Below, one piece after another: positions 6,679 to 34,609 of a stretch of DNA of 39,789 nucleotides (position 1 is the first letter of the stretch; each line of letters begins with the position of its first letter). The position numbers and the translations under genes were made by a program. The notes under the pieces are model-generated. The model did not search any database. It was not told the origin of the DNA and saw only the letters and a list, made by a program, of their open reading frames with translations. Source of the stretch: Thermoplasmatota archaeon (GTDB lineage Archaea; Thermoplasmatota; Penumbrarchaeia; Penumbrarchaeales; Penumbrarchaeaceae); assembly GCA_029762535.1 (NCBI GenBank), contig JARVGK010000004.1, positions 82,314-122,102 on the forward strand. The letters are read 5' to 3'.

Positions 6679-8484
6679 TCATTCTCCTGAAATAAGGCGC
6701 TCCATCTCTTCGATCGTGGGTCCGAAGCCGGATAGGGCCTCGCGTATGGGATCGGGCCTTGACAGATCGACGCCGGCGAGCATGAGGGCATCCAGAGGCG
6801 GAAGCGATCCGCCTGATCCAAGCATCGAGAGATAGCCCTCTTTGGCCTCCTCGTCTCCGGAAAGCACCTTCTCGGCTATGGACCTCGCGCAGCAGAAGCC
6901 TGTGACATATTTGTAAACGTAGAAATCGTAGTAGAAATGAGGTATCCTCGACCATTCCATCCTTATCGCGTCATCGATCACGACATCGGGGCCGTAGTAC
7001 TTGCGGTTGAGGTCCCCGTAAATGTCGCAGAGTAGGTCCGGGGTCAGTGGCTCCTCCTTTTCGGCCAGGGTGGATACGCTCTGCTCGAACTCGGCGAACA
7101 TGCACTGGCGGAAAACGGAAGTCCTCGCCTCCTCGAGCTCGTGGTTGAGCAGATAGGCCTTCTCCGCTCCCGATGTCCAGGTCCGCAGAAGATGATGCGA
7201 GAGCAGCGCTTCGTTGAAGTTCGATGCGACCTCGGCGAGCAGTATTGGATAGTCCGCCTGGATGTGGGGCTGGGATCTGTTGGCTATAAGGGAATGGAGG
7301 CTGTGGCCCATCTCGTGGGAGAGGGTGAAGAGGTCCTTGACCTTGCCCGTATAGTTCATCAATATGTAAGGAGGCCTGTCGTAGCAGCTCGAGGAATAGG
7401 CCCCTGACCTCTTCCCAACGCTTTCGATGAGATCGATGGTATTTCCCGAGAAAAGCTCGCGTGCCGGGGTTATGAGCCGATCCCCTGCGGGAGAGAGAGA
7501 ATCCATCACCAGTTCCACTGCCTGCTCGTACGGGACCTCCTTGTCCACATCGGAGACGAGCGGAACGTAGAGGTCGTACATGTGCAGCTCGTCGAGCCCC
7601 ATATTCTCCTTTCGAACCCTCATGTAACGGTGGAGTTCCGGCAGGAACTCCGAGACCGCCCCGATCACGTTCATGTACACCTCCGGCGTGACCTCGTCCG
7701 GGTCCAGGGCATATTCGAGGGCGGAGGAATATCTCCTGGCCCTGGCAAGGAAACGCCTTCCCTCCATCTCGCCGGATACGAGGCTGGCCATGGTGTTCCT
7801 CAAACCGTTGTAGACGCCGAGTAGACCTTCGAAGGCGTTCTTTCGCAGGGTTCTGTCCCGGTCCATAAGATACATCGAGTACCTGGCATGGGTGAGCGGC
7901 CTTTCGCGCGCGCTCCCATCCAAAACCTTACCGAAGGATAGATCGGCATCGTTGAGCATCCTGAAGGTCCTCGAGACCGCTCCGAGGGGTTTCTGTCCCA
8001 TTGCGAGGAGCATCTCGGATGCCCCGTCCAGGTAATGCCCCCTCATCCTCATGACCTCTCGGAGCGGAACCCGGGCGAAATCAAGCCGCTTATCATCCAT
8101 GATCCTGTCCAGGAAGCCAGGCGGGCTGGAGAGGATATCGGGCACCACAAAGGAGGACGCCTCTGACAGTCCCGCCGAGAGGGACCTCGCCCTCTCGAGC
8201 ATGTCCTGGTGCTTCCTGACATTGAGGTCCTCGTCATGCTTGAGATGCGAGTAGAGGTATATCCTCTCCATGTCCTGTTCGATCTCGTCGATGGTCCTCA
8301 GGCAACTCGCGATGTTCGAAGCATCTCCGGAGAGCCTTCCATTGAAAGCGGATATCTCTGGTATCCTCGAACGGACCTTCTCCATGTCGTTGGCCCAATC
8401 CTCATCGGAGTCGTATATCCGGGTCAGGTCCCATCTGTATTCCATCGGCACCTCGCTCCTGGCCTGCGTACGCTCCTCGATCAT
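6679..8484 (-). CDS. pepF: Oligoendopeptidase F (M3B)
   Basis: RSEVP..YRWDL N-terminus, GKRSGAYS, HEMGH zinc motif, AEVAS, W.RIPHFY..FYVYKY. ATG 8484 overlaps the GNAT stop (ATGA). Confidence 0.95.
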   Translation of the reverse strand: MIEERTQARSEVPMEYRWDLTRIYDSDEDWANDMEKVRSRIPEISAFNGRLSGDASNIASCLRTIDEIEQDMERIYLYSHLKHDEDLNVRKHQDMLERARSLSAGLSEASSFVVPDILSSPPGFLDRIMDDKRLDFARVPLREVMRMRGHYLDGASEMLLAMGQKPLGAVSRTFRMLNDADLSFGKVLDGSARERPLTHARYSMYLMDRDRTLRKNAFEGLLGVYNGLRNTMASLVSGEMEGRRFLARARRYSSALEYALDPDEVTPEVYMNVIGAVSEFLPELHRYMRVRKENMGLDELHMYDLYVPLVSDVDKEVPYEQAVELVMDSLSPAGDRLITPARELFSGNTIDLIESVGKRSGAYSSSCYDRPPYILMNYTGKVKDLFTLSHEMGHSLHSLIANRSQPHIQADYPILLAEVASNFNEALLSHHLLRTWTSGAEKAYLLNHELEEARTSVFRQCMFAEFEQSVSTLAEKEEPLTPDLLCDIYGDLNRKYYGPDVVIDDAIRMEWSRIPHFYYDFYVYKYVTGFCCARSIAEKVLSGDEEAKEGYLSMLGSGGSLPPLDALMLAGVDLSRPDPIREALSGFGPTIEEMERLISGE

Positions 8485-8903
8485 CCACTCTCCTCCATCA
8501 TGTAATGGGCTATCCCTGCCTCGAAAAATGGCTCTCCGACCTTCCTGAAACCGCATCCCACGTAGAAATCGACGGCCGAGGTCTGCGAGTGTAGATAGCA
8601 TGAGCCGGACCCCATACCTCGCGACACCTCCTTCATGAAAGCGACGATGGCCCGGCCAACCCCATGTCCCCTCATTTCCTTGACCACTGCTATCCTCTCG
8701 AGCTTCGCTTTACCACTCAGCATCCTGATCCTTCCGCAGCCTATAGGCTCGCCATCGACATAGGCACCAATGTGTACTGCGTGGTCATCGTGCCCGTCGA
8801 ACTCCTCGGAGCTATCGACACCCTGCTCGATGACGAACACGCGCCTCCTGATCTCGAACAGGTCCTCGACTGAGCGATGGTCCCTGGTTATCCTGACCTC
8901 CAT
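8481..8903 (-). CDS. GNAT family N-acetyltransferase (ElaA/YjcF-like)
   Basis: IRRRVFVIEQGV, RGHGVG acetyl-CoA motif, FY...GF...GEPF.EAGI.H. GGAGAAGG SD precedes ATG 8903. Confidence 0.9.
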   Translation of the reverse strand: MEVRITRDHRSVEDLFEIRRRVFVIEQGVDSSEEFDGHDDHAVHIGAYVDGEPIGCGRIRMLSGKAKLERIAVVKEMRGHGVGRAIVAFMKEVSRGMGSGSCYLHSQTSAVDFYVGCGFRKVGEPFFEAGIAHYMMEESG

Positions 8904-19478: not shown

Positions 19479-19522
19479 GATATATGGACCATCCAAACCT
19501 CGTTAGAAGGAGGGGATCAGTA

Positions 19523-20314
19523 ATGGAACCCATTGGCGAAAGATCCTGGAAGCAGTACTATGAGGACGAGAGGACATCAAGGAGAAAAGAGCTGGAAGAC
19601 CGCATGAGGCAGGCCTGGGACCAGGACGACCCCGAGGTGCTGAATGTCCTTCAGAAGGGAGGGGCCCTCTCCTTTCCCCACAGCTATATCGATACCAGCT
19701 TCGACCCTCTCCTGAGGACCGTCAGAGCAATTCACCGATCGGGTAAGAAGAGGGTGCTCGCCTTGGGCGTTATGCACTACTTAGGAGACGAGATCCCCCT
19801 GGAGTTCTCCCTCGACGGGTTCAGGTTCGCAATGGATATGGCCAGGGACCTGTTCTCGACCGATGAGGTCCCGATACGGGAGGAATTCTTCTTTAGGGAC
19901 GACATCCCCCTGTCCGACACGGAAGGCATCGTGAATTACATAATCGGGAAGGGAAGGGAGGCCGCGCCCGGACCGGATGATGAAACGGCCATAGTGATGA
20001 CCGGGGACCTATCCCACTACGGACATGCCTACGGCATAGAGGACACGGTCCCGGAATACGAGAGCCTCATGAAGAAGGACGTCGAGCGCGCTCTTATGCT
20101 GCTCTGGAGCAGGAAGGATCCGATAGCCTATCTGGAACACGCCCGCGCGTCCCACAACGATCAGGCATATCCCGCTCTGGCCCTTTTCGGTATGTTAAAA
20201 GGCGATCTCGAATACAGGATATTCGACTTCGGCATCGCAGATTACGCAAAGGTCCTGGACAAGCCGGTGCCGTCCGTTGTGGCCTCGGTCTTCTACGGCG
20301 TCAATCCCAAATGA
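19523..20314 (+). CDS. Divergent MEMO1/AmmeMemoRadiSam protein B-like (LigB-fold) protein
   Basis: FPHSY, LGVMH, EFSL and TGDLSHYG line up with the MEMO motifs PHAGY, LGPSH, EHSLE and SSDFSHYG. AGGAGG SD precedes ATG 19523. Confidence 0.6.
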   Translation: MEPIGERSWKQYYEDERTSRRKELEDRMRQAWDQDDPEVLNVLQKGGALSFPHSYIDTSFDPLLRTVRAIHRSGKKRVLALGVMHYLGDEIPLEFSLDGFRFAMDMARDLFSTDEVPIREEFFFRDDIPLSDTEGIVNYIIGKGREAAPGPDDETAIVMTGDLSHYGHAYGIEDTVPEYESLMKKDVERALMLLWSRKDPIAYLEHARASHNDQAYPALALFGMLKGDLEYRIFDFGIADYAKVLDKPVPSVVASVFYGVNPK

Positions 20315-20348
20315 AAGTTTTAGATTGAAGGGGGCACATACCGGGATC

Positions 20349-21800
20349 ATGCGCAGGACCAAGATAGTCTGTACCATAGGCCCCTCATGTTCGGACATCG
20401 ATATGCTCACCGAGCTCCGTGAGGCCGGAATGAACCTTGCCAGGCTCAACATGTCCCACGGCGATCACGCCTTTCACAAGAGGGTCTTCGATTCCATCAG
20501 GGACATGCCCGAAGGAAAGGCCATCCCCGTCATGTTCGACATACAGGGGCCGAAGATCAGGGTCGGGCGCCTTGACGGACCGATGATCGTCAAGGCGGGA
20601 GAGAGTATCGAGGTGTTCCCCGGAGAGGGTCCCGGATCCGAGAACCGCCTCCCGATAGATTATCCGAAGCTGCTGGAGGAGCTTAAGGTCGGGGACGAGG
20701 TGTTCATCAACGACGGGACCGTTCGCATCGTGGTGGCCCGGGTCGAAGGGGACCATCTTCTGTGTACGGTCGAGAACGGGGGCGTGATCTCGGAGAGGAA
20801 GGGGTGCAACATCCCCTCGAGCAACCTCTCGGTATCCGTCCCGACCGATAAGGACCTCAGGGACCTTGATTTCATATCGGCATTGGACCCAGAATACATA
20901 GCGGTCTCTTTCGTCAACTCGCCCGATGACGTGGAGAGGGTCAGGGACCTCCTTATCGAACTCGGAGCCCCTCGCGTCAAGCTCGTATCGAAGATCGAGA
21001 GACCGCTGGCCCTGAAGAACATAGAGGGCATAATCGAAAAAAGCGACGCCGTGATGGTCGCACGGGGCGATCTCGGCGTGGAGATCCCGCCCGAGTTCGT
21101 GCCCCAGGCGCAGAAGGATATAATCCTGAGTTGCAACAGGGGTGGAATACCGGTCATCGTCGCAACGCAGATGCTCGAGTCCATGGTATTGAACCCCCGA
21201 CCCACCCGCGCGGAGGCCAACGATGTTTTCAACGCTGTCCTCGATGGCGCGGACGCGCTCATGCTCTCCGCCGAGACCTCCGCTGGCAGATACCCGGCAG
21301 GGTCCGTCCGGTTCATGGACAGGATAATCAGGTCCGCCGAATCCGTCCTGCAGATGAGGGACCCTGACTACTATGACTCACCCAAGGGGAGCGCCGTGGA
21401 AGCGGCCGGGCACGCCGTGTTCACCCTCGCCAAGGAGATAGTTGAAATGCAAAGGAAGGGCTGTATAATCGCCGTGACCGAAAGCGGGTTCTCCGCAAGG
21501 ATGATCTCCAAATACAGGCCAGTCCTGCCCATCATCGCCATGAGCCCGGATGAGAGAACCTCGAGGGAGCTCGATCTGGTCTGGGGCGTGAGGCCCGTGC
21601 GCTCGAGGGACCTTGTCCACGGGGATATCGAGTCCCGAGCCGTATCGGCCCTGACCTCCGCCCGGAAGATGGGGCTGGTAGGTCCAGGCGAGAGCGTGAT
21701 AATGGCCTTCACATCGATCGAATGCGGAGGGGCCGGCATATACACGGCGATCTACGATGTCGATGAGGTCCTGGCAAGGTGCTCAGACGGGGCGGTGTGA
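20349..21800 (+). CDS. pyk: Pyruvate kinase
   Basis: RRTKIVCTIGPS, ARLNMSHG, DIQGPKIR, SKIE, MVARGDLGVE, ATQMLESM, PTRAE..DV.NA..DG.D..MLS.ET. Confidence 0.97.
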   Translation: MRRTKIVCTIGPSCSDIDMLTELREAGMNLARLNMSHGDHAFHKRVFDSIRDMPEGKAIPVMFDIQGPKIRVGRLDGPMIVKAGESIEVFPGEGPGSENRLPIDYPKLLEELKVGDEVFINDGTVRIVVARVEGDHLLCTVENGGVISERKGCNIPSSNLSVSVPTDKDLRDLDFISALDPEYIAVSFVNSPDDVERVRDLLIELGAPRVKLVSKIERPLALKNIEGIIEKSDAVMVARGDLGVEIPPEFVPQAQKDIILSCNRGGIPVIVATQMLESMVLNPRPTRAEANDVFNAVLDGADALMLSAETSAGRYPAGSVRFMDRIIRSAESVLQMRDPDYYDSPKGSAVEAAGHAVFTLAKEIVEMQRKGCIIAVTESGFSARMISKYRPVLPIIAMSPDERTSRELDLVWGVRPVRSRDLVHGDIESRAVSALTSARKMGLVGPGESVIMAFTSIECGGAGIYTAIYDVDEVLARCSDGAV

Positions 21801-23078
21801 CCCCCATTTCTCCAGCGCCTCCCCGAGGGCAGGAGCGCTCCTTGCCTTCTCCTTAAGCGAGATCCCATCGTTGAAGGCCTCGATCGCCTGCATGGATGCC
21901 TCGGCGCCTCTTCTGGTCCCTTTCGGATGGCCGTGTATGCCTCCGCTGACGAGCAGCACCATGTCGTTGCCGTAGAACCTCATCACGTCCGGGACAAGCC
22001 CTGGGTGCAGTCCTCCGGAGGCAACGGGGAAAGCGCTCTTGATCCTCCCCCAGTCCTGTTCCAGTGTCCTGCCCTCGTAGGCAGGGGTGCGCTTCAACCT
22101 CATGATACCCGCCAGGGACTCGAGCTCCGTCTCCGTTCCGACCAACTTCCCCACGGCTGTTCCCGTATGCAGCTGGTCCATGCCGATGAGCCTCATCTCC
22201 TTGGCCAGGAACTGCATGGAGATCCCGTGGTGGGGGTCCCTTGTGAACGAGGCGTGCATGGCCCTGTGGGCGTGTATGGTCATTCCCAGGTCGGAAAGGA
22301 AGGCCCTCATCGTCTGCAGTGCCGATGTCCCGACGATAACGACGTCCATCATGACGTAGTCGAACCCGTGATCGTGAAGGACCCTGGCCCTTCGCTTCAT
22401 CTCCTCCGTCTCCGCAGTGATGTTGACGAACGCGCCCTTTCTCTCTCCCGTGAGCCTCTCCGCCTTCTCCCTGTATCTCGCTATCAGCTCCACCCTCTTG
22501 TCGAACTTGTTGAAGGATAGGGAGGAGAGGTTCTCATCGTCCTTGACGAAGTCGAAGCCTCCCATCCAGGTCTCGAAACCCACCCGGGCATGCTCAGCGG
22601 CTGAGAAACCGATCTTTGGTTTGGGAACGGCCCCGGTGAGGGGCCTCTTGTATACCTTATAGCGCTTTCTGATCCCTTCCATTCCAACGAGCGGGCCCTT
22701 GAACGCCCTGACGTACGATGGTGGGAAGCGTACATCGATCAGCCTCAGGCTCCTTACGCCCTTCATTCCGAATATATTGCCCGCGATCCCGCTTTTGAGC
22801 TGGGCGAAGTTACCCCTCTCCCATAGAGCGGAGGGATAGGAGACCTTCAGCAGGTCACCCCTCATCCAGTATGATGTGGCTTTGAGCGCATCCATCCTCT
22901 TGGGCATGTTCGACAGCGTCGTCCACGTTCCCGTCGAGCTCTCGGAGGCGATCCTCCCCGCGGATTCGGCCCTTGACATCCCCTCGGGAGGCTCGAATGA
23001 GAACAGCGCTATGATATCTTCCTTCTCTGGCTCGTGTTCCATATCGACGAACTCGCCGTACCAGTCTATAGTGCTCAT
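21783..23078 (-). CDS. rbcL: Ribulose-1,5-bisphosphate carboxylase, form III (archaeal type)
   Basis: ESSTGTWT, AGNIFGMK, PKPK, GGFDFVKDDEN, HAHRAMH, LHTGT.VGKL, ASGGLHP, GGIHGHP. Catalytic residues are present and there is no small subunit. Confidence 0.95.
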   Translation of the reverse strand: MSTIDWYGEFVDMEHEPEKEDIIALFSFEPPEGMSRAESAGRIASESSTGTWTTLSNMPKRMDALKATSYWMRGDLLKVSYPSALWERGNFAQLKSGIAGNIFGMKGVRSLRLIDVRFPPSYVRAFKGPLVGMEGIRKRYKVYKRPLTGAVPKPKIGFSAAEHARVGFETWMGGFDFVKDDENLSSLSFNKFDKRVELIARYREKAERLTGERKGAFVNITAETEEMKRRARVLHDHGFDYVMMDVVIVGTSALQTMRAFLSDLGMTIHAHRAMHASFTRDPHHGISMQFLAKEMRLIGMDQLHTGTAVGKLVGTETELESLAGIMRLKRTPAYEGRTLEQDWGRIKSAFPVASGGLHPGLVPDVMRFYGNDMVLLVSGGIHGHPKGTRRGAEASMQAIEAFNDGISLKEKARSAPALGEALEKWGSHRPV

Positions 23079-23100
23079 ACGACTAACATGAACCTCGGAA

Positions 23101-23170
23101 CGTATAAATGTAGTGCTTGATGCCGCTTGGCCATGTTGATATTAATCGTTTCGTAAACTGTTTATAATAT
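23101..23170. promoter_or_regulatory. Back-to-back TATA boxes for rbcL (- strand) and pnp (+ strand)
   Basis: TTTATA on the minus strand at 23103-23108, about 25 nt from the rbcL ATG (leaderless-type spacing). TTTATAA on the plus strand at 23161-23167. Confidence 0.6.
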
Positions 23171-23187
23171 CAGTTATTATGGGCTCC

Positions 23188-23403
23188 GGAAAGAAAAAGA
23201 AAAAAAAATATGGGCCGGCCATCGAGGGATAGGCCCGGGAAGCGTATTCACGTTCATGCGGTGTGTTCGAACCCGCTTTCATCCACGAAGGATGGGACCC
23301 GATCGGACCTCGTGGTCCGGGACGGGACGGTTTTTCCACGCATGGTCCTGTTGCGGACCGGTTCATCCCCGATAGGGGACCTGGCACTGGAAAAGGTGAT
23401 GTA
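23188..23403 (+). other. Long structured 5' leader (or ncRNA) of pnp
   Basis: A-tract followed by successive stems: GGGCC/GGCCC, GCGG/CCGC, CATCC/GGATG, CGGACC/GGTCCG, GGTCC/GGACC, TCCCC/GGGGA, and a closing TTTTCCA/TGGAAAA next to the SD AGGTGA. Confidence 0.6.
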
Positions 23404-25659
23404 ATGACGTATAAAAAGTTCGAGATGGAGCTCTCGGGAAAGAAATTGACGATAGAGACGGGAAAGCTGGCACTTCAGGCCGGATCATCAGTGACCGCCA
23501 GGATCGGGGATACCCTGGTCCTTGCCACGGTGACGATGGCCAAGAAACCCAGGGCGAACATGGACTTCTTCCCCCTGATGGTGGACTACGAGGAACGATA
23601 TTTCGCGGGGGGAAAGATAAAGGGCCCCAGGTTCATGAAGAGGGAAGGAAGGCCCTCCGGAGAAGCCATTCTGATAGGTAGGATGATAGATCGGGGCCTC
23701 AGGCCTCTGTTCCCCAACGAGATAAGGAACGATATTCAGGTCATATTGCTGCCGCTCAGCCTGGACGAGGAGAACAGGCCGGACATCGTCGGGATGATAG
23801 CGGCATGCACGGCATTGCATATGTCAAACATCCCATTCGACGGACCGATAGCCGGATTGAGGGTCGGGATGGTGACGGGGGACCTCGTGATCAATCCGAC
23901 CATAGAGGAGCAGGAGTATTCCGAATTGAATCTCGTGGTGATGGGGGACAAGGACAGGCTCACAATGGTGGACTGCGACGCAATGGAGGTAGATGACGAG
24001 ACCATGAAGGTCGCATTCAAGGAGGCGATGAAGGCTCTGGAACCTCTGACATCGTTCATAGACGACATAAGAAAGGAGATCGGACATGAGAAGTTGAAGG
24101 TCGAGGACCTGGCAAAGCCCTTGGAGCTCTCGGATGAGGACAAGGAGGCCATAAAGAAGCTCAAGGCCGCCTCGAAGCCCATGCTGAAGAAATACCTGTT
24201 CAACTCTCCCAAAGGATCCAAATCCGAGCGATGGGACGTCCTTAATAAGATGGAGGAGGAGCTGGTGGAGAAGAACGCCTCCAAGTTCGTTACCGGGGAC
24301 CGCGATGAGGAGGCCTCGAAAGAATACCTGAGTAAACTCTTAGGGAATTTCTTCCACGATTACATAGAGGAGCAGGTCACCCTTGCGATACTGGACAGCG
24401 ACCAGAGGGTGGACGGACGGACACTGGACCAGATCAGGCCCCTGTCCGCCGAGGTCTCCATCCTTCCCCGAACACACGGATCGGGCCTGTTCTCAAGGGG
24501 TGAGACGCAGATACTTTCCGTCGTCACATTGGGGTCGCCCGGGGACGATCTCATAATAGAGACCATGGAGCGCAACGAGAACAAGAGGTACTTCCATCAT
24601 TACAATTTCCTCCCCTACTCCGTCGGGGAGGTGAAACCTCTTAGGGGCGCTGGCAGAAGGGAGATCGGCCACGGCGCGCTTGCCGAGAAGGCACTAAAGC
24701 CAGTGTTGCCGCTCGAGGACGAGTTCCCGTACACGATAAGGGTGGTGAGCGAGGTGATGGGGAGCAACGGTTCCTCCTCGATGGCGAGCACCTGCGGCTC
24801 GACCCTCGCCCTCATGGACGCGGGCGTCCCGTTGAAGAGGCATGTAGCGGGCATAGCTATGGGGCTCGCATCGGACGGAAAGAGATGGAAGGTCCTCACG
24901 GACCTGCAGGACCTCGAGGACGGTGCCGGTGGAATGGACTTCAAGGTCACTTCGACCAGGAACGGCTTGACCGGGGTACAGATGGACACGAAGACGCGGG
25001 GGCTCTCAAGCGAGATCATAGAGGCGACGTTCCCGCAGATGAGAAAGGCCATCGATGAGGTCCTCACGGTGCTGGAGACGGCGATACCGGAGCCCAGAAA
25101 GGAGCTCTCAAGTTACGCACCCAGGATCATACAGATGATGATCGACCCGGAGAAGATAGGCGAGGTCATAGGCCCCGGAGGCAAGGTGATAAGGGGGCTG
25201 TGCTCCGAACTGGGCGTCGACATCGACGTGAACGATGACGGAATAGTCACCATCACATCGACGGACCCGGTCATGGCAAAGGAGGCCGAGGAGCGGATAA
25301 AAGGGATCGTCAAGGTGGTCGAGGTCGGAGAGGTCTATCGCGATGTCGAGGTCGTGAGGATACTGCCCTTCGGCGCGATGGTGGAGATAACCCCCAACAC
25401 CAACGCACTTATCCATATCTCGGACATAGACTGGGAGAGAACCCCCCGTGTGGAGGACAAGCTCAAGATCGGTCAGAGGGTGGACGTCAAGGTCGTGCGG
25501 ATGGAGAGGGGCAAGATCGACGTGTCCATGAAGGCGCTGAAGCCCAGACCTGAGGGTTTCAGCGAGAGCCAGAGCAGGGACGACAGAAGGTCAGGTCCCC
25601 GTGACCGCGACAATCAGAGGAACCGTAACAGGCCGAGGCCGAACTTCAAGAGGAATTAG
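23404..25659 (+). CDS. pnp: Polyribonucleotide nucleotidyltransferase (bacterial-type PNPase)
   Basis: ETGKLA.QA, DFFPL.VDYEE, REGRPS, R.IDR.LRPLFP, HGSGLF.RGETQ, HYNF...SVGE, RREIGHG.LA, SNGSSSMAS, MDFKV, KH (IGPGGK.I) and S1 domains. AGGTGA SD precedes ATG 23404. Confidence 0.97.
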   Translation: MTYKKFEMELSGKKLTIETGKLALQAGSSVTARIGDTLVLATVTMAKKPRANMDFFPLMVDYEERYFAGGKIKGPRFMKREGRPSGEAILIGRMIDRGLRPLFPNEIRNDIQVILLPLSLDEENRPDIVGMIAACTALHMSNIPFDGPIAGLRVGMVTGDLVINPTIEEQEYSELNLVVMGDKDRLTMVDCDAMEVDDETMKVAFKEAMKALEPLTSFIDDIRKEIGHEKLKVEDLAKPLELSDEDKEAIKKLKAASKPMLKKYLFNSPKGSKSERWDVLNKMEEELVEKNASKFVTGDRDEEASKEYLSKLLGNFFHDYIEEQVTLAILDSDQRVDGRTLDQIRPLSAEVSILPRTHGSGLFSRGETQILSVVTLGSPGDDLIIETMERNENKRYFHHYNFLPYSVGEVKPLRGAGRREIGHGALAEKALKPVLPLEDEFPYTIRVVSEVMGSNGSSSMASTCGSTLALMDAGVPLKRHVAGIAMGLASDGKRWKVLTDLQDLEDGAGGMDFKVTSTRNGLTGVQMDTKTRGLSSEIIEATFPQMRKAIDEVLTVLETAIPEPRKELSSYAPRIIQMMIDPEKIGEVIGPGGKVIRGLCSELGVDIDVNDDGIVTITSTDPVMAKEAEERIKGIVKVVEVGEVYRDVEVVRILPFGAMVEITPNTNALIHISDIDWERTPRVEDKLKIGQRVDVKVVRMERGKIDVSMKALKPRPEGFSESQSRDDRRSGPRDRDNQRNRNRPRPNFKRN

Positions 25660-26039
25660 TACAGGTCCCTACGGCCCAGGAACGCCCATAACAGCAGAAC
25701 GCACCACATCAGGGCCGCGAAAAGGTTCACGGTCCAGAAGGACCTCTTCCTGATCTTGTGACGGAACAGGAACATTCCAGCTAGCGATCCGGAGAACCCT
25801 CCAAGGAGGGGCAGAAGCAGCAGCAGGGACTCCGGGACCCTCCTTTTATTTGCGAGCGACGCCCCCTTGTCGATCGCATACAGGGCCAGGGCGGTCGCGG
25901 AAGAGGCGGCGATCCAGGAAAGCATCGGCCCGAGCGGGGTCAGGTACCAGAGAGTTGCGAAGGTCAGAAGCGTCGTGATCATCGAGGCTACCCAGAAAGG
26001 ATCCCTCTTCGCCCCCTCGTCCCTTCCTATCGAGGTCAT
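25656..26039 (-). CDS. DUF1294 (YsdA-like) membrane protein
   Basis: LYAIDK.A....RRVPE..LL....LGG..G...GM.LFRHK.RK signature. Confidence 0.88.
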   Translation of the reverse strand: MTSIGRDEGAKRDPFWVASMITTLLTFATLWYLTPLGPMLSWIAASSATALALYAIDKGASLANKRRVPESLLLLLPLLGGFSGSLAGMFLFRHKIRKRSFWTVNLFAALMWCVLLLWAFLGRRDLY

Positions 26040-26132: not shown

Positions 26133-26936
26133 ATGACACCGAACGAGACTCCCATCGTCGAGACAAGGAAGTTGGTGAAGATATACGACACCGGCTCTGT
26201 TAAGGTGGAGGCCCTGCGTGGGATCGACCTCAAGGTTAACAAAGGGGAGATGGTCGCGATAATGGGTCCGTCCGGTTGCGGGAAGACGACCCTGCTGAAC
26301 TGTCTCTCGGGCCTGGACGACACCACATCGGGCAACGTCCTCGTGGAGAACGTCGATCTCGCCAGGATGAAGGACGATCAGAGGACGGATTACAGGGCAC
26401 GCAACATGGGTTTCGTCTTCCAGTTCTACAATCTGCTCCCCGTCCTTACGGCCCTGGAGAACGTGGAGATGGTCCTTCTTCTTGCGGGCGTTAGGGCATC
26501 CGAGGCCAGAAAGAAGGCGCAGAAGGCCCTTGAGCAGGTGGGCCTCAAGGGTTATGAGAAGCACAGGCCTTCTCAGCTCTCCGGAGGCCAAAGGCAGCGC
26601 GTGACCCTCGCCAGGGCCCTGGTCAACGATCCGAAGATAGTCTGGGCCGATGAGCCCACGGGGGACCTCGACAAGCGCAATTCCGAGGAGGTAATGGAGC
26701 TGATGAGGAATCTCAACCGGGACCTGAACATGACATTGGTCATCGTCACCCATGACCCGGACGTCGCCTCCAAATGCAGACGCATAATCCACATGGAGGA
26801 CGGTCTCATCGTAAAGGACGTGCCAATAACGGAAAAAGACGCACTGAAGCACCCCAGGGGCGGCGACTATACGATGTGCGGCGAGAAGGATTCAGGGGCC
26901 GCCAGGATAAGCCAGGAGCAGCAGCAGTCGCTATAG
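26133..26936 (+). CDS. ABC transporter ATP-binding protein (LolD/MacB/SalX family)
   Basis: [49 protein letters not shown]. Confidence 0.96.
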
Positions 26937-26949
26937 GAGCGCATGACCC

Positions 26950-29900
26950 ATGGCTGGCATCAGGGAAAGGCTGACCAGGATAGGGTGCGCGGTCCGTTCG
27001 GTCCCGTTCATGGGATGGGCGTTGGAGCATTTCGGCGAGTTCCTGCTCGCCACGCTTCTTTTCCTGCTCCTTTTGATCGTTGTTGCCGGGTTATATGCGG
27101 TCCCGTCGGAACTGAAACCGATGGTCGCCATGGCGGGGCTCGTGTACCTGATCATGGTGGTGTTCGTCATCCTTCTCCTGGCGCTGTACAACAGGCTGCA
27201 GTTGAGAATGGGGTTCCGCAACCTTATAAGGCACAGGTCGGACTCGATCATCGCCGTTCTGGGTTTCATGATAGGGACATCGATAATCTGCTCCTCCATG
27301 GCCATAGGGGATACAATGGACAACATGATGGAGGGGCTCATCTACGAATCCTTCCACCTGTACGATGAACAGGTCCAGGTCACTGGACCGGACGGCAGAG
27401 CCGTATATTTCAACGGCTCGGAGGCGAACGAGATCGCCTCGATCGTCTGGTCCATCAATAATGGCAGTAAGCTGATCGACGGGGTCTCGTGGGAGGTCCT
27501 CGAATCAGGCTCGATAATCAACATCGACTCCAGTCTATTCGAGCCCAGCGTCAGCCTGAAGGCGCACAGCCCTGATTCGACGGGAGCGTTCGGCGGTTTC
27601 AGGTCGGGAGGCTCCAGCGTCGATTTGGACCTCGGACCCGGCGAGGCGGCCTTAACGGAAAGCCTCGCAGAGAAGATCTCAGCTGAGAATGGCCAAAAGA
27701 TCATGCTGAACACATGGGGCGGGACAGGCACCTTCACCGTAAAGCACATACTCGACGTCGATGGAAGGAGCGCTACCTTCTCCAGGGACAGCGTTTATCT
27801 ATCATTCGAGGGGATATGGGGACTGTTCAATCTCACGACGGAAGGCCCATCCCCCAAGGGGGGCAGAGGCGACTGGTCCTTTGGCTTCTACAATGTGTTG
27901 TATATCTCCAACGAGGGGGGCCGGGTGGAAGGGGCATCCCTCTGTAAAGAGGTGATCGAGAAGCTGGAGGATGAGCTCTCTGAATATCCTCATCCTCTGG
28001 GGGAGGGGGTCAAATGGGAGGTGAACCTGGACAAGGATTCGAGCGTCAAGGAGGCCAAGTCCCAGATGGAGCAGTTCTCCAAGCTCTTCCTGATACTCGG
28101 TACATTCACCATCATTGCGGGCGTCACCCTCATCATCAACATATTCGTGATGCTCTCCGAGGAGAGGATGGAGGAGATGGGGATCTCAAGGGCTATCGGC
28201 ATGAGGAGGAAGCATCTGAGAAGGATATACCTGTTCGAGGGAACCGCATACAGCATCCTTTCCTCTTCGGTGGGAGTGCTCTTCGGCATATTCAGCGGGT
28301 ATATCATCATCCTATTGATACAGAGGATATTCGAGAACATGGGTATATCCGGTTTCAATATTCTCAAGTTCTATACGGTAACGCCCACGTCCATCATTCT
28401 ATCCTTCGTGGCGGGCTTCGCGATAACCATCTCGACGACGCTGTTCATCACCCAGAGGGTCGCCAGGCTCAACATAGTCAGCGCGATCCGGAACACACCA
28501 GTTCCCACGGGGTCGCCGGGTCAGGTCAGGTTCTTTCAAAGGCTCTTAGGGGTCATCGATCCCAGGACCGGGGAAGGTGATGGTAGTAGCCTGTCAAAGG
28601 TCATCGGTTTCGCATTCTCCAACTACACCATAACTGGCCTGGCCCTTTTGGTCACAGGTGGCGTTCTCGCCGCGACAGGGATCCCATCGAAGACCGGGTG
28701 GTCGTCCCATCTGGGCATATCGCTTATCCTCATCGGCGCATCGTTCCTCATCAGGCATTTCCTGAGCCAGAGGCTGACCTTCAATATCGCGGCACTGCTC
28801 CTCCTGGGATTCTGGATTGCCCCGATCCCATTCTTCAAGGGCTATTCGGGGGATCTCGAGATGTTCATACTCTCAGGCATGTTCATGGTCTCCTCCGGGG
28901 TGCTTCTGCTTGTCTGGAACACCGATATAATTTTATGGATCGCGGAAAAGGTACTATCTCTCATCAGGGTCTCCCCGGCATCCGTAAAGATGGCGATCTC
29001 CTACCCCGTCAAGAAGAGGTTCAGGACCGGCGTGACGATATTCATGTTCGCCCTTATCATATTCACCATAACCGGCATGTCAATGATAATCGAGATATTC
29101 AACGTGAACATAAGCTCGTTCGAGCGCAGCATAGGCGGCGGATACAATTTGATAGGTGTCTCAACAGTCAGCGGAATAGAGGACCTGGAGGGAACGGTAT
29201 CCATACTGGATCCGGTCAATCATACGTACATAGACTGGGACAACACCCATTCCCTATCGAACGGATACATCAGGATCAACTATACCGTTCCCATGCTCGG
29301 CACAAAAGACGAGATGATATACCCGTGTGCTGGTGTGTCAGAACGCTTCATCGAGAGGAACACCTACGGTTTCACCGATGTCGCATGGGAACTTATAGAT
29401 GAAGGAGGAAAACTGGAACGCAACGACGATCTGGTATGGCGTTCCCTCGATGAAGGCAGGTTCGTCATCCTCGACGGAGGGCTGGCCCCCGGGAACATGT
29501 TCGGCTTCGGCTCCCCTTTAGGGATAAAGCTGGGAGAGAACCTGACGCTGGTGAACTACAACAACACCCACATCAACAGGACCGTTCTGGCTTTCACTGA
29601 GCAGTTCGGAATCTCCGGTGTCTTCATGCACGAGGAGCGAGCCCTTGCCGATTTCGGGATCGCCGAGAAGCGGATACATCTGATAGCGCTTTCCGATGAT
29701 GGAAGGACGTCGGAGGTCTCCGAAGGCCTGAGGCGCAACCTTCTCCCATACGGCTTCTACACAGTGATAATAAGCGAGATCGTTAAGGACATACTCAAGT
29801 CCCAGAACGCGTTCTTCGACCTGTTCAACGCTTTCCTGTCCCTCGGTCTGATAATAGGCATCGTCGGACTGGGGATCGTCACTCTGCGCTCCGTTTACGA

Positions 29901-30210
29901 GCGCAGGCACGAGATCGGGATGATGAGGGCCATCGGCTTCAAGAGGAGGATGGTGGTCGGCTCGTTCCTGGGCGAGAGCGGCTTCATCGCTGGCTCCGGT
30001 CTTATCATAGGTTCGGGGCTGGGCATTATTCTGGGATGGATACTGTGGAGGGACGAGGGGTTCGGACAGGACTTCGACCAGTTCGGGATCCCTTACATGA
30101 AGCTCCTTTTCATATTGGGCCTGGCCTTCGCCGTCGCGCTGATATCCTCCATACCCCCATCATTGAAAGCTTCCAGGATCGCGCCGGCCGACGCGCTCAG
30201 GTACGAATGA
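26950..30210 (+). CDS. ABC transporter permease with duplicated FtsX/MacB-like domains
   Basis: Two copies of ER..E.G..RAIG (ERMEEMGISRAIG; ERRHEIGMMRAIG) and C-terminal P.DALRYE. Follows the ATPase gene. Confidence 0.92.
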   Translation: MAGIRERLTRIGCAVRSVPFMGWALEHFGEFLLATLLFLLLLIVVAGLYAVPSELKPMVAMAGLVYLIMVVFVILLLALYNRLQLRMGFRNLIRHRSDSIIAVLGFMIGTSIICSSMAIGDTMDNMMEGLIYESFHLYDEQVQVTGPDGRAVYFNGSEANEIASIVWSINNGSKLIDGVSWEVLESGSIINIDSSLFEPSVSLKAHSPDSTGAFGGFRSGGSSVDLDLGPGEAALTESLAEKISAENGQKIMLNTWGGTGTFTVKHILDVDGRSATFSRDSVYLSFEGIWGLFNLTTEGPSPKGGRGDWSFGFYNVLYISNEGGRVEGASLCKEVIEKLEDELSEYPHPLGEGVKWEVNLDKDSSVKEAKSQMEQFSKLFLILGTFTIIAGVTLIINIFVMLSEERMEEMGISRAIGMRRKHLRRIYLFEGTAYSILSSSVGVLFGIFSGYIIILLIQRIFENMGISGFNILKFYTVTPTSIILSFVAGFAITISTTLFITQRVARLNIVSAIRNTPVPTGSPGQVRFFQRLLGVIDPRTGEGDGSSLSKVIGFAFSNYTITGLALLVTGGVLAATGIPSKTGWSSHLGISLILIGASFLIRHFLSQRLTFNIAALLLLGFWIAPIPFFKGYSGDLEMFILSGMFMVSSGVLLLVWNTDIILWIAEKVLSLIRVSPASVKMAISYPVKKRFRTGVTIFMFALIIFTITGMSMIIEIFNVNISSFERSIGGGYNLIGVSTVSGIEDLEGTVSILDPVNHTYIDWDNTHSLSNGYIRINYTVPMLGTKDEMIYPCAGVSERFIERNTYGFTDVAWELIDEGGKLERNDDLVWRSLDEGRFVILDGGLAPGNMFGFGSPLGIKLGENLTLVNYNNTHINRTVLAFTEQFGISGVFMHEERALADFGIAEKRIHLIALSDDGRTSEVSEGLRRNLLPYGFYTVIISEIVKDILKSQNAFFDLFNAFLSLGLIIGIVGLGIVTLRSVYERRHEIGMMRAIGFKRRMVVGSFLGESGFIAGSGLIIGSGLGIILGWILWRDEGFGQDFDQFGIPYMKLLFILGLAFAVALISSIPPSLKASRIAPADALRYE

Positions 30211-30219
30211 AGGTTTGGT

Positions 30220-30711
30220 TCACCTCCTTTTCCTTGGATAATCGGGAGCATACCTCAATTTCAGCTCGGTCATGTGCTTTCTGAAGGTGATCAAGCGGTG
30301 CTCGCACGCGATGAGATCGGCGTATCTCTCGACCCCAAGTAGCAGCCAGTACGTGTCGTCCCCGAAGTCGTGGACCAGCGTCCTGAACTCCTGATAGGTG
30401 AAGAAATCCACCTCGCCCTGATTGTAGCTGCTCTCGGACGTGGCCTTCGCCCTTTCGAAGAATGGCCCGAGCATCTCCATCAGTTCATCCCGGTCCCTCT
30501 TGGCCATTTTGACCTTATCGAAGAAGCCCTCGTTGAGGTTGTGTTCGAAGAGCCGGATCAGGTTCGAGTAAAGCGTCGCCTCAACGAAATTCGCAGCATC
30601 GTCGATCAGGGGGATGTACTTGTGCGTGGAGTTCGATATAGTCCTCTGCGTTCCCTCCACCACGGAGCAGAAATTACGGTAGAAATCCCCCTCGGGCTTC
30701 TTTTCTTCCAT
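30220..30711 (-). CDS. Hypothetical alpha-helical protein
   Basis: 163-aa ORF fills the gap, has a GGTGA SD 7 nt before the ATG, and has no recognised motif. Confidence 0.65.
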   Translation of the reverse strand: MEEKKPEGDFYRNFCSVVEGTQRTISNSTHKYIPLIDDAANFVEATLYSNLIRLFEHNLNEGFFDKVKMAKRDRDELMEMLGPFFERAKATSESSYNQGEVDFFTYQEFRTLVHDFGDDTYWLLLGVERYADLIACEHRLITFRKHMTELKLRYAPDYPRKRR

Positions 30712-30718
30712 TCACGGC

Positions 30719-30771
30719 TCACCGTATCGATATATCGCACGGCGATAGCAGTGGGAAGTATAATACGGTGA
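30719..30771 (-). promoter_or_regulatory. Stem-loop sequestering the SD of ORF 30220..30711
   Basis: 9-bp inverted repeat TCACCGTAT (30719-27)/ATACGGTGA (30763-71) with inner TATCGC/GCGATA. Confidence 0.5.
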
Positions 30772-30797
30772 TGGTCCACAAAGGCCATTATCGAGGA

Positions 30798-31139
30798 TCA
30801 GAGCTCGTGAGTGCTCTCCCAGACCCCGTGTATGTTGCAGTACGAGGTCGCGACGAGAGCCTTGAAGTCGGCGCATGATACGTGGAAGCAGGCGCTTGGC
30901 TCGGTGTATCCCGGACCGAAAACGGACCTGCCTATGTCTATAACGTTACCGTCCGTCTTCACACCGAAAAGCTCGATCCATACGATATGATGCTCCGTCA
31001 GGTTCGGATGGGGGACGTCCTTGCCAACCACCACCTTGACTATGTCCTTTCCGGCCTTCCCCTCTCCCTTCAAGAGGTCTATGATAGGTACGTGCTTCTC
31101 CTTTCCTTCCGCGGTCTTGTACAGTTCTCCCATTCTCAT
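30798..31139 (-). CDS. sor: Superoxide reductase (neelaredoxin, 1Fe-SOR)
   Basis: EKHVP, HP...EHHI.WIEL and YCNIHG.W iron ligands. No desulforedoxin domain. Confidence 0.93.
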   Translation of the reverse strand: MRMGELYKTAEGKEKHVPIIDLLKGEGKAGKDIVKVVVGKDVPHPNLTEHHIVWIELFGVKTDGNVIDIGRSVFGPGYTEPSACFHVSCADFKALVATSYCNIHGVWESTHEL

Positions 31140-31310
31140 CTGCTCACCTCTGAACTATTATCTCATGTCACGACCTTATACATCAAGTATCTAATTAATT
31201 ATTTGAGGTTAGGCATTGTACATTCCACAACACGGGATCATTGTCCGAAGCATGGATCATTTCGCGACATCCACTCATTGTTTTATCTACGAGCTCGTAT
31301 TTCAGGTAAC

Positions 31311-32702
31311 ATGGCCCCAAGGACCCGCGCGGCCTTGTTCGCCCTGCTGGCCGTCGCACTGCTATCTCTCTCTGCCGCAGCCGTGCTGAACAGGGACCGC
31401 CTCCTAAACTGGAGCGAACCATATCTGATCGGCTTCGACACCACAAGGGCAGAGACGCATGTCAGGGAGCTGATACAATGGGGGCCCAGGATGTCAGGGA
31501 CGGAGGCCGAGCTCGAGGGGGCCCTCTACATACAGAGGCAATTCGCGGAGGCGGGGTTGACTGATGTCCACATGGAGAATTACACTGTGCCCATGTTCGA
31601 GGTCATATCGGCCGATATGCAGATGGTCCAGTATATGCCCCTGGGGAACCTCCCGAGGCCCAACGGGGAGACAGTGTCCTACGAACATATGACCCAGTTC
31701 GTTGTCCAGGGATACTCGGGATCCAGGCGCTGGAGCGGCTTCCGGGACGATCTCGAGATCATAAACATCGGAGACGGCTCCGATCACGCCAGCTTTTCAA
31801 GGGCCAGGGGCAGGGCCTGCTTCATCGAGCAGACCGAGAGCACACCTTCGAACTGGGAGCTTTACGACATGGCCGCTGACGCCGGGGTGGAGGCCGTTGT
31901 GCTCCAGAACCTCTTCCAGGGGGAAAGCATCGGTTATCTGCCGTTCTTCAAGTCGGGTCCCGATATCGGCAGCTCCAGGAGGATCCCAGTACTGATGGTG
32001 GGCAAGGATGCCGGGGACGATATGCTCAGGAGGAGCGGATACAAGTTGAGGCTTGACCTTGATGTTTTGATAGAGGACAGGCCGATCAGGGTGGTCGTGG
32101 GAGATATAAAGGGGAGCGGGGACGATCTATACGTTTTCACCGCGCATCACGACACCTGCTACAACACGGTCGGGGCCATAGACAACACCGTTGGCCCGGC
32201 GACCCTGATAGAGATCGCGAGGGGGATGGCATCCTCCGGGAAGAGCTTCCGCTCCACGGTGCGCTTCGCGACGTTCGGCGGCGAGGAAGAGGGACTTTTC
32301 GGCTCGATAGCATATTACGATGCGCACAGGAGCGAACTGGGCAGGAACTGCAAGGCCGTCCTGAACTTCGATATGGCCCACGTCGATGCGAGGACCAGCT
32401 CCGCACCCATGACGTGTACCGATAACGGGACCATAAGCTCCGTGTTGAAGTACAGGGACCTGCTGATCAAGGCGGAGCCGAGCCTTTCCAGATACGAGAT
32501 CGACGGATATTACAGCGAGATGCAGACACCTTACTCGGATTTCTGGCCGTTCGTGATGGACGGGGCCACCGGGATCGCGGCCTGGGGATCGGGATGCTAC
32601 GAATACCACACGTACAAGGACGATATTACCCATCTCAATCCCGAATCGCTGCAGATATGGGGGCGCATTCTGGGATCGTACGCCCTTGAAGCGAGCACCT
32701 GA
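31311..32702 (+). CDS. Secreted M28 family aminopeptidase with PA domain
   Basis: Signal/TM at MAPRTRAALFALLAVALL, then AHHD, GAIDN, GGEEEGL.GS, NFDM, SD..PF and YHT. True start 31311. Confidence 0.9.
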   Translation: MAPRTRAALFALLAVALLSLSAAAVLNRDRLLNWSEPYLIGFDTTRAETHVRELIQWGPRMSGTEAELEGALYIQRQFAEAGLTDVHMENYTVPMFEVISADMQMVQYMPLGNLPRPNGETVSYEHMTQFVVQGYSGSRRWSGFRDDLEIINIGDGSDHASFSRARGRACFIEQTESTPSNWELYDMAADAGVEAVVLQNLFQGESIGYLPFFKSGPDIGSSRRIPVLMVGKDAGDDMLRRSGYKLRLDLDVLIEDRPIRVVVGDIKGSGDDLYVFTAHHDTCYNTVGAIDNTVGPATLIEIARGMASSGKSFRSTVRFATFGGEEEGLFGSIAYYDAHRSELGRNCKAVLNFDMAHVDARTSSAPMTCTDNGTISSVLKYRDLLIKAEPSLSRYEIDGYYSEMQTPYSDFWPFVMDGATGIAAWGSGCYEYHTYKDDITHLNPESLQIWGRILGSYALEAST

Positions 32703-33624: not shown

Positions 33625-33682
33625 CAGCGAAGGGATCGTGTTGCTCTTATTAAATATCATTCGGGCATATACCGCATATGAT

Positions 33683-34609
33683 ATGCAAAAAGATAGAAGC
33701 TCGGCCCCGTTCCTTTTCGGAGACGAGGTGAAAGAGGCGTTCGACATCCCAACTCCCATAGTGGCGTTCGAGACCGCGTTCATGACCCATGGTCTCCCGG
33801 AAGGTGTCGGCATCGAGGTAATGAACGAAATGATGGAGGCCTGCAGGTCGAGATGTGCCGTTCCGTCCCCGATCGGGGTTGTGGATGGTGACATACTGGT
33901 CGGAATGGACGAAGACCAGCTATTATCCCTATCCCTTGATCCGGATAGGGAGAAGATCAGCTCCAGGGACCTGGGCTTTGCCGCAACGCGCAAGCTCAGT
34001 GGTGGTACCACCGTCTCATCCACGCTGAGGATATCCCATATTTCCGGGATCGACGTCATGGCGACCGGGGGAATAGGGGGAGTACATCCGGTCGCCAACG
34101 GGAAGATCGACATATCGCAGGACCTGTTGGAGCTCTCCAGATGTCCGTTGATGATCGTATGCTCGGGTCCCAAATCCATCCTCGATGTGGAGGCGACCTA
34201 CGAGATATTGGAGGCATTATGCGTCCCTGTGGCCGCTTACGGAACGGGAACCCTTCCAGGTTTTCTCTTCGAGACGGGGATCCCCGCTGAGCGAGTTCTC
34301 GATTCGCCGGAGAGGGCCTGCCGATCGTTCAATGAACATATGAGGTTCGGATCGGGTTCCGCTTTCCTCGTTGCGAACCCTCTATCCAAGGAACTTAGTC
34401 TGGAACGAGAATATGTATCGGACCTCCTAAACAGGTCCGATCCCCTCATCCCGGGGCGCTCTCGCACGCCGGAGGCCCTGTCCGGTCTCTCGAGGCTGTC
34501 GGGAGGAAGAACGCTCGAGGCCAACCGATCCCTCCTTGTGGGCAATGCGCGTCTCGCTGCGGAGATGGCCTCGGAGCTCCATGCTCTGATAAGGACCAAA
34601 TCTAAATAA
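33683..34609 (+). CDS. psuG: Pseudouridine-5'-phosphate glycosidase (PsuG/IndA family)
   Basis: VAFETAFMTHGLP, KISSRDL, TTVS.T, ATGGIGGVH, DIS.DL.EL, CSGPKSILD (Schiff-base Lys), TP..L, N..L...NA.LA. Confidence 0.88.
   Translation: MQKDRSSAPFLFGDEVKEAFDIPTPIVAFETAFMTHGLPEGVGIEVMNEMMEACRSRCAVPSPIGVVDGDILVGMDEDQLLSLSLDPDREKISSRDLGFAATRKLSGGTTVSSTLRISHISGIDVMATGGIGGVHPVANGKIDISQDLLELSRCPLMIVCSGPKSILDVEATYEILEALCVPVAAYGTGTLPGFLFETGIPAERVLDSPERACRSFNEHMRFGSGSAFLVANPLSKELSLEREYVSDLLNRSDPLIPGRSRTPEALSGLSRLSGGRTLEANRSLLVGNARLAAEMASELHALIRTKSK

Follow-up and report, generated by a model that had tools for sequence, protein, structure and literature searches.

A bacterial-type polynucleotide phosphorylase beside form III RuBisCO in an archaeon that has lost its exosome genes

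Do genes that lie side by side in an archaeal genome, and whose products could act in one route, form a unit for that route? This question is raised by a locus in the metagenome-assembled genome (MAG) of a Thermoplasmatota archaeon, in which the genes for pyruvate kinase (pyk), form III RuBisCO (rbcL) and polynucleotide phosphorylase (PNPase; pnp) are direct neighbors. The locus is part of a stretch of 39,789 nucleotides (the window), which represents positions 82314-122102 of contig C47 of this MAG, labelled G000. A preliminary description of the window saw in the three genes a candidate module for using RNA as a source of carbon and energy, which would amount to a selected and co-regulated unit: the nucleoside diphosphates (NDPs) released by PNPase would be the source of ribose, after their conversion to nucleoside monophosphates (NMPs), as well as the phosphoryl acceptor, RuBisCO would supply 3-phosphoglycerate (3-PGA), and pyruvate kinase would yield nucleoside triphosphates (NTPs). 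We regard such a unit as unlikely. Probably, these are ordinary functional genes of housekeeping or central metabolism whose adjacency is an inherited, lineage-specific gene order and does not constitute a dedicated unit. A more notable result than an RNA-to-ATP module is that bacterial-type PNPase appears to have replaced the archaeal exosome.

Profile matches and motif alignments bear out that pyk, rbcL and pnp are adjacent and intact, and their identities are far above chance. Pyruvate kinase is encoded on the plus strand at 20349-21800. The longest open reading frame (ORF; 20277-21800) opens at a TTG at 20277, but the ATG at 20349, residue 25, is where the match to the hidden Markov model begins. 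From there, the product has 483 aa, contains both the barrel and the C-terminal domain (PK, PF00224; PK_C, PF02887) and scores 471.7 bits with TIGR01064 (cut-off 306.4). The rbcL gene occupies 21783-23078 on the minus strand and encodes a form III large subunit of 431 aa, which matches TIGR03326 (type III RuBisCO) with 528.9 bits, and with 528.7 bits in a whole-genome search, against a cut-off of 497.45. Its closest solved structure is that of Pyrococcus horikoshii (2CWX), with which the motifs align. The catalytic set is complete: the KPK motif is present, as are the carbamylated lysine with its Asp and Glu, the His-Arg pair, the lysine of loop 6 and both phosphate sites, SGG and GG. In an alignment of 11 sequences (A4), the columns K153, K155, K179, D181, E182, H271, R272, H304, K311, S354-G356 and G379-G380 are invariant.

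The pnp gene (23404-25659, plus strand) encodes a bacterial-type PNPase of 751 aa (TIGR03591, 820.3 bits; cut-off 525.05). Its ATG at 23404 is preceded by the Shine-Dalgarno sequence AGGTGA, and the identical 751-aa product is found in a gene-call collection. The Pfam domains follow each other in the order RNase_PH (twice), KH and S1, and the protein aligns over its full length with the PNPase of Staphylococcus epidermidis (5YJJ). In the order of its domains and in its catalytic motifs, it is identical to this Firmicutes-type enzyme: RREIGHG, NGSSS and MDFK are retained, and the phosphate-binding serine cluster and the catalytic Asp and Lys of the second PH domain are intact. Beyond S1, there is a basic C-terminal tail of approximately 38 residues in which Arg, Asp, Asn and Pro are abundant (25540-25659). 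As to the arrangement, the convergent genes pyk and rbcL share 18 bp at their 3′ ends (21783-21800), as seen from the ORF coordinates and the sequence, and rbcL and pnp diverge from a region of 325 bp (23079-23403).

G000 comprises 2.96 Mb, is 93% complete and contains a full-length archaeal small subunit rRNA; its host is a sediment-type Thermoplasmatota archaeon. We considered that the contig might be a mis-binned bacterial fragment and rejected this, because the same pnp context is found in many archaeal MAGs, including a single-contig genome of 3.6 Mb. Mis-binning is further countered by archaeal-type genes in the window, which encode an HVO_0163-like helix-turn-helix protein and a GvpD-like ATPase. 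For comparison, 41 relatives were searched, consisting of the complete set of 37 species-level genomes from the class (a class-level search added none to these) and four genomes from other classes. A sample of the phylum held 201 genomes, 164 of them outside the class of the window. The genera of the family to which the window belongs are labelled g1 to g7, with G000 in g1. In addition, two metagenome contigs from the separate JGI samples 3300005077 and 3300037308, L041 and L042, encode a PNPase that is 78-79% identical to that of G000.

Where, then, does the PNPase come from, and what does it do? Within the class, it is found above the family cut-off in 31 of the 37 genomes, and among the 164 other Thermoplasmatota genomes sampled in a single outlier (G050). 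Its close homologues carry the source labels Thermoplasmatota archaeon or Thermoplasmata archaeon. The confinement to the class and one outlier points to one main acquisition of bacterial-type PNPase, which the ancestor of the class would have obtained from Bacteria and which would now serve as the main phosphorolytic 3′-5′ exoribonuclease.

In archaea, phosphorolytic 3′-5′ decay of RNA to NDPs is also the activity of the exosome, and PNPase is therefore the functional analogue of the exosome. A relative from genus g7, G006, has the classical superoperon psmA-SBDS-Rrp4-Rrp41-Rrp42 (L048, G006:C23:20000-29000). Unlike there, the exosome genes are missing from this slot in G000 (G000:C15:16374-20103), although psmA and SBDS, and the genes that follow the slot, are kept on an unbroken contig. 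Rrp4, Rrp41 and Rrp42 gave no match anywhere in G000. With its flanks conserved on an unbroken contig and no exosome genes elsewhere, the loss of the exosome in G000 is hence a genuine deletion. It is more likely than a catabolic role that PNPase is a housekeeping replacement of the archaeal exosome, and in G000 it would stand in for the deleted Rrp4-Rrp41-Rrp42 complex. Rrp41 was also not found in g3 to g6 or in several other families, and many of these genomes have PNPase. By the PNPase tree, this requires at least two independent losses of the exosome within the family. In the literature collection that we searched, PNPase of Thermoplasmatota or Thermoprofundales was not described in any paper. 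The class-wide presence of a bacterial PNPase, together with the repeated loss of the exosome, is relevant to the question of how the RNA decay machinery of archaea can be swapped for that of bacteria.

The genome also contains an RNB/RNase R-like open frame (G000:C14:90680-92125, minus strand; 916 aa), which scores below the cut-off for bacterial RNase R. Together with PNPase, it makes up a bacterial-style set for RNA decay.

The question whether the locus serves to feed on RNA depends first on the remaining enzymes. The archaeal pentose-bisphosphate pathway, consisting of AMP phosphorylase, ribose-1,5-bisphosphate (R15P) isomerase and form III RuBisCO, is well described in Thermococcus kodakarensis (PMC9700705, PMC12628685). 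The preliminary description called for a search for AMP phosphorylase, R15P isomerase and NMP kinases, and according to profile searches the first two and an adenylate kinase are encoded in G000. On contig C40, which is not the contig of the window, the gene for R15P isomerase (G000:C40:9550-10419; TIGR00511, 315.8 bits, cut-off 314.1) lies directly upstream of, and adjoins, that for AMP phosphorylase (G000:C40:10521-12008; TIGR03327, 625.4 bits, cut-off 535). Genes for adenylate kinase and enolase are present as well. Since AMP phosphorylase, R15P isomerase, adenylate kinase and enolase are encoded, a route from RNA via NDP, NMP, R15P, ribulose-1,5-bisphosphate (RuBP), 3-PGA and phosphoenolpyruvate (PEP) to pyruvate is enzymatically possible. 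As in T. kodakarensis, the same three enzymes are there, with equivalog-level scores in G000, and 3-PGA enters lower glycolysis. In contrast to that system, the rbcL gene of G000 is separate from the other two and sits between pyk and a bacterial-type pnp. In terms of gene content, the pathway of G000 appears complete.

From this gene content, we infer the following physiological roles. RuBisCO would act in the pentose-bisphosphate (NMP degradation) pathway together with the AMP phosphorylase and the R15P isomerase of contig C40, and pyruvate kinase would catalyze the final reaction of glycolysis. Carbon and phosphoryl groups from RNA might then flow from PNPase, which would give NDP, via adenylate kinase, which would give NMP, to R15P, RuBP, 3-PGA and PEP, and finally to pyruvate and NTP. 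Such a flow is biochemically plausible, and equally so in every archaeon with both a phosphorolytic RNase and the pentose-bisphosphate pathway; it is neither encoded nor demonstrated by the order of the genes. The presence of all required enzymes nonetheless counts in favor of a unit for burning RNA. Enzymes of the RNB/RNase R family yield NMPs directly, such that the RNB/RNase R-like enzyme could provide NMPs without PNPase, which argues against such a unit.

A different supply of RuBP is conceivable. G000 encodes a protein of the phosphoribulokinase (PRK) subfamily (G000:C69:22338-23252, minus strand), which scores 303.5 bits with NF005655 (cut-off 236) and 118.8 bits with uridine kinase, as well as an RpiB-type isomerase (G000:C17:28116-28529, minus strand); RpiA was not found in G000. 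PRK and RpiB thus constitute a possible second route to RuBP, a further difference from T. kodakarensis, and they may feed RuBisCO alongside the NMP pathway. The presence of the RNB/RNase R-like gene and of PRK/RpiB weakens the idea that PNPase is a specific feeder of the route. One could go further and propose that RuBisCO is mainly fed by PRK, with ribose 5-phosphate being converted to ribulose 5-phosphate by RpiB and to RuBP by PRK, in a PRK-RuBisCO shunt or a route of the reductive hexulose-phosphate type that serves CO2 assimilation or redox balancing; the location of rbcL beside pnp would in that case have no bearing on RNA catabolism. A PRK-RuBisCO pathway of archaea is described in PMC5241800, and the score of the PRK-subfamily protein and the RpiB-type isomerase are in line with one in G000. 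However, PRK is patchy, being found in seven of the 41 relatives and, within the family, in G000 and four others only, whereas nearly every genome of the class has rbcL, AMP phosphorylase and R15P isomerase. Also, the PRK gene of G000 is unlinked to rbcL and has a trehalose-synthase-like glycosyltransferase and a desaturase gene as neighbors. We therefore consider it very unlikely that RuBisCO depends mainly on PRK.

If the three genes had been brought together for a joint function, one would look for their linkage in other genomes. The pyk><rbcL<>pnp arrangement is not unique to G000, but recurs in L041 and L042, where pyk and rbcL overlap by a comparable 4 bp and 16 bp, respectively. The triad therefore is a feature of a narrow clade rather than of a single genome, and its retention in two further organisms of the g1 clade, from separate metagenome samples, is a point for a selected unit. 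The part of the arrangement that involves pyk is nevertheless confined to the g1 clade: pyk adjoins rbcL in none of the 36 other genomes of the class, 19 of which encode pyruvate kinase. That pyk was not found in 18 of the 41 relatives (14 of these are class genomes), and is located elsewhere in the remainder, speaks against its being part of such a unit.

The rbcL<>pnp pair is more widespread. It is present in 16 genomes from g1, g3, g4, g5 and g6, all within the family of the window, and its maintenance in five genera again favors a functional connection. It was not found in g2 (four genomes) or g7, and it is absent from all ten genomes of other families of the class that have both genes on assessable contigs. 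G031 is outside this count, as its pnp and rbcL each lie, facing outward, at the start of a contig, and the two contig heads do not overlap; in G035, a family mate of G031, the two genes are apart. In the PNPase-bearing outlier from another class, G050, there is no rbcL in the approximately 8.5 kb of available sequence upstream of pnp. In the PNPase tree, the family falls into two clades, (g7,(L041,(G000,L042))) with support 98/97 and (g2,(g5,(g3,(g4,g6)))) with support 96/95. By this tree, the pair is ancestral to the family and was lost twice, in g2 and in g7. In G006 of g7, the loss has left a trace: a decayed C-terminal remnant of rbcL, which spans residues 340-430 and is broken by two in-frame stops and a frameshift, still lies between the genes for the peptidase PepF and pnp, facing pepF (L031:7009-7280; G006:C24:59008-59279), and a different contig carries the intact rbcL (G006:C30:444-1781). 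The dissolution of the pair in g2 and the decay of the pnp-adjacent rbcL in g7 argue against selection for a unit.

Moreover, the pair does not stand out from its surroundings. In g3 to g6, it is embedded in the block GNAT-PepF >< rbcL <> pnp-ABC ATPase-FtsX permease-(small ORF)-M28 peptidase. Of this block, the half on the side of pnp is kept in G000 too (26133-32702, plus strand, by Pfam: ABC ATPase, MacB/FtsX permease, a small ORF at 30220-30711 on the minus strand, and M28 peptidase), and by tblastn the ABC-FtsX-M28 genes are beside pnp in 13 of 14 loci of the family, the exception being G017 of g2. Because PepF, GNAT, the ABC exporter and the M28 peptidase are equally syntenic, rbcL<>pnp is no better conserved than the unrelated neighbors, which is a further argument against a unit. 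So is the thioredoxin gene that splits the pair in g3 and g5, where it lies between rbcL and pnp, directly upstream of rbcL and in the same direction (L030:10821-11237 in g3; L024:9756-10157 in g5).

In G000, pyk fills the position of PepF/GNAT, a replacement limited to the g1 clade, and a PepF homologue is found 13 kb upstream (6679-8601), on the opposite strand. In G006, pyk and pnp share a strand, with pyk 13.6 kb upstream. A simple inversion bringing pyk to rbcL in G000 was considered; it does not fit the positions and strands of pyk in G006 and of PepF in G000.

The preliminary description proposed to examine synteny and co-occurrence across archaeal MAGs; in our comparison, the pairing is confined to one family. 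A scan of metagenome contigs with a RuBisCO alignment gave 80 loci of 46-67% identity; in about half of these, the sequence upstream of rbcL extends to 3 kb or more. PNPase, Rrp41 and Rrp42 were found in none of the 80, even at E≤1e-8. By contrast, 16 of the 80 loci contain the genes for AMP phosphorylase and/or R15P isomerase; a single locus has a distant pyruvate kinase approximately 2 kb upstream. Among the genomes, rbcL adjoins the AMP phosphorylase gene in G027, G030, G032 and G034, as well as in G038 of another class. Hence, the known linkage of rbcL with AMP phosphorylase or the isomerase recurs, whereas the proposed linkage of rbcL with pnp does not, neither in these independent loci nor in the other families that could be assessed, and this weighs against a unit. 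That the rbcL of the window's family has moved from its usual partner, AMP phosphorylase, to pnp can be taken as a point in its favor. Nor is Rrp41 linked to RuBisCO: in the 11 relatives that have both rbcL and Rrp41 (above cut-off), the two are never neighbors. A separate search of genome contigs with the PNPase protein gave S1-domain matches only, in three alphaproteobacterial MAGs. Linkage was thus observed within the bounds of shared descent, for the triad in the g1 clade and for the pair in one family.

Are the genes at least regulated together? Because the strands alternate (+, -, +), one shared transcript of pyk, rbcL and pnp is impossible. The divergent rbcL/pnp intergenic region (23079-23403) was inspected in sequence and in alignments A1, A2 and A3. 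A TATA-like box for rbcL lies on the minus strand at approximately 23104-23109, about 26 nt from the ATG of rbcL, and a B recognition element (BRE)/TATA box for pnp at approximately 23150-23169. Both are conserved in the alignments, and from their sequences we infer that they are the promoters of the two genes. Between the two TATA boxes, no conserved sequence was found, even inside the g1 clade (A1, A3), such that neither co-transcription nor a conserved common regulatory element supports a co-regulated unit.

The pnp gene has a 5′ leader of approximately 200 nt with conserved blocks, whose 3′ end is the AGGTGA motif. By analogy with bacterial pnp, this leader may be autoregulatory. In alignment A2 (23170-23403), it has a GGGGGCC...TTTGGC...GGTCC core in g3 to g6 and a variant of this in G000, and an A-tract lies close to its start.

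The claim of an RNA-to-ATP module has thus fared unevenly. The genes were correctly identified and enzymes that generate RuBP are encoded, but no shared transcript or control element was found, and the linkage is bound to a lineage. Three observations sit less comfortably with an adjacency that is merely inherited. Two successive rearrangements, first of pnp and then of pyk, have brought to the side of rbcL genes with a possible link to the chemistry of RuBisCO, which is somewhat unlikely to happen by pure chance. The divergent rbcL<>pnp pair has persisted in five genera whose PNPases are approximately 62-66% identical. Finally, the pair and the exosome are distributed in a complementary manner, in that g2 and g7 have kept the exosome and lost the pair, and g1 and g3 to g6 have lost the exosome and kept the pair. 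This last pattern would speak for a unit as well; as it comprises four lineages only, it is not significant and can be taken only as a hint.

These observations could be accommodated by a more restricted form of selection. In lineages without an exosome, which rely on PNPase, selection might hold rbcL next to pnp, with pyk added in g1, and thereby co-regulate RNA phosphorolysis with the pentose-bisphosphate pathway, with PNPase as the entry to RNA-fuelled substrate-level phosphorylation. We consider this quite unlikely. If the adjacency were functional after all, abundant sediment archaea would have a complete route from RNA to ATP that starts with PNPase, and a catabolic pathway for extracellular or stored RNA would be defined. 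Inherited gene order remains our preferred explanation.

Comparison with known systems leads to a similar assessment. The use of RNA-derived ribose for ATP synthesis by substrate-level phosphorylation was proposed for CPR (candidate phyla radiation) bacteria that have form II/III and III-like RuBisCO (PMC5113843), and RNA ribose as a fermentable substrate for a RuBisCO pathway is an accepted idea, which counts in favor of a unit. The conversion of RNA ribose via RuBP and 3-PGA to pyruvate or acetate plus ATP is indeed the same idea in both cases. The CPR proposal differs in that it does not invoke PNPase as the entry enzyme. Furthermore, CPR bacteria have tiny genomes, whereas the host of G000 is a 3-Mb archaeon rich in genes for peptidases and peptide transport. 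As both the pathway enzymes and the idea of obtaining ATP from RNA ribose were already known, the sole new element of the module is PNPase as a feeder, for which the genomic evidence is weak.

A tie between RNA phosphorolysis and lower glycolysis is in itself not without precedent. In the bacterial degradosome, PNPase associates with the glycolytic enzyme enolase, a precedent for a physical or functional connection of the two processes. In contrast to the degradosome, the host here is an archaeon, and the linkage is genomic only and concerns RuBisCO and pyruvate kinase rather than enolase.

The immediate neighborhood of the three genes contains some further features. Convergent with pnp lies a DUF1294 gene (25656-26039, minus strand; PF06961), which has no place in the proposed route. 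It is also present in L041, and in the loci of other genera it gave no tblastn match (E≤1e-10). On the other side, an ORF of 276 aa (19484-20314, plus strand) ends 35 bp 5′ of pyk and has no match in Pfam or NCBIfam; in L041, the space 5′ of pyk is filled by what looks like a different pair of ORFs, on the opposite strand. Farther downstream, 8 kb 3′ of pnp and separated from it by the exporter, the peptidase and a radical SAM gene, the window encodes a PsuG-type pseudouridine-5′-phosphate glycosidase (33638-34609, plus strand; Indigoidine_A, 257.9 bits). This further enzyme of RNA-nucleotide salvage near pnp is found in L041, too.

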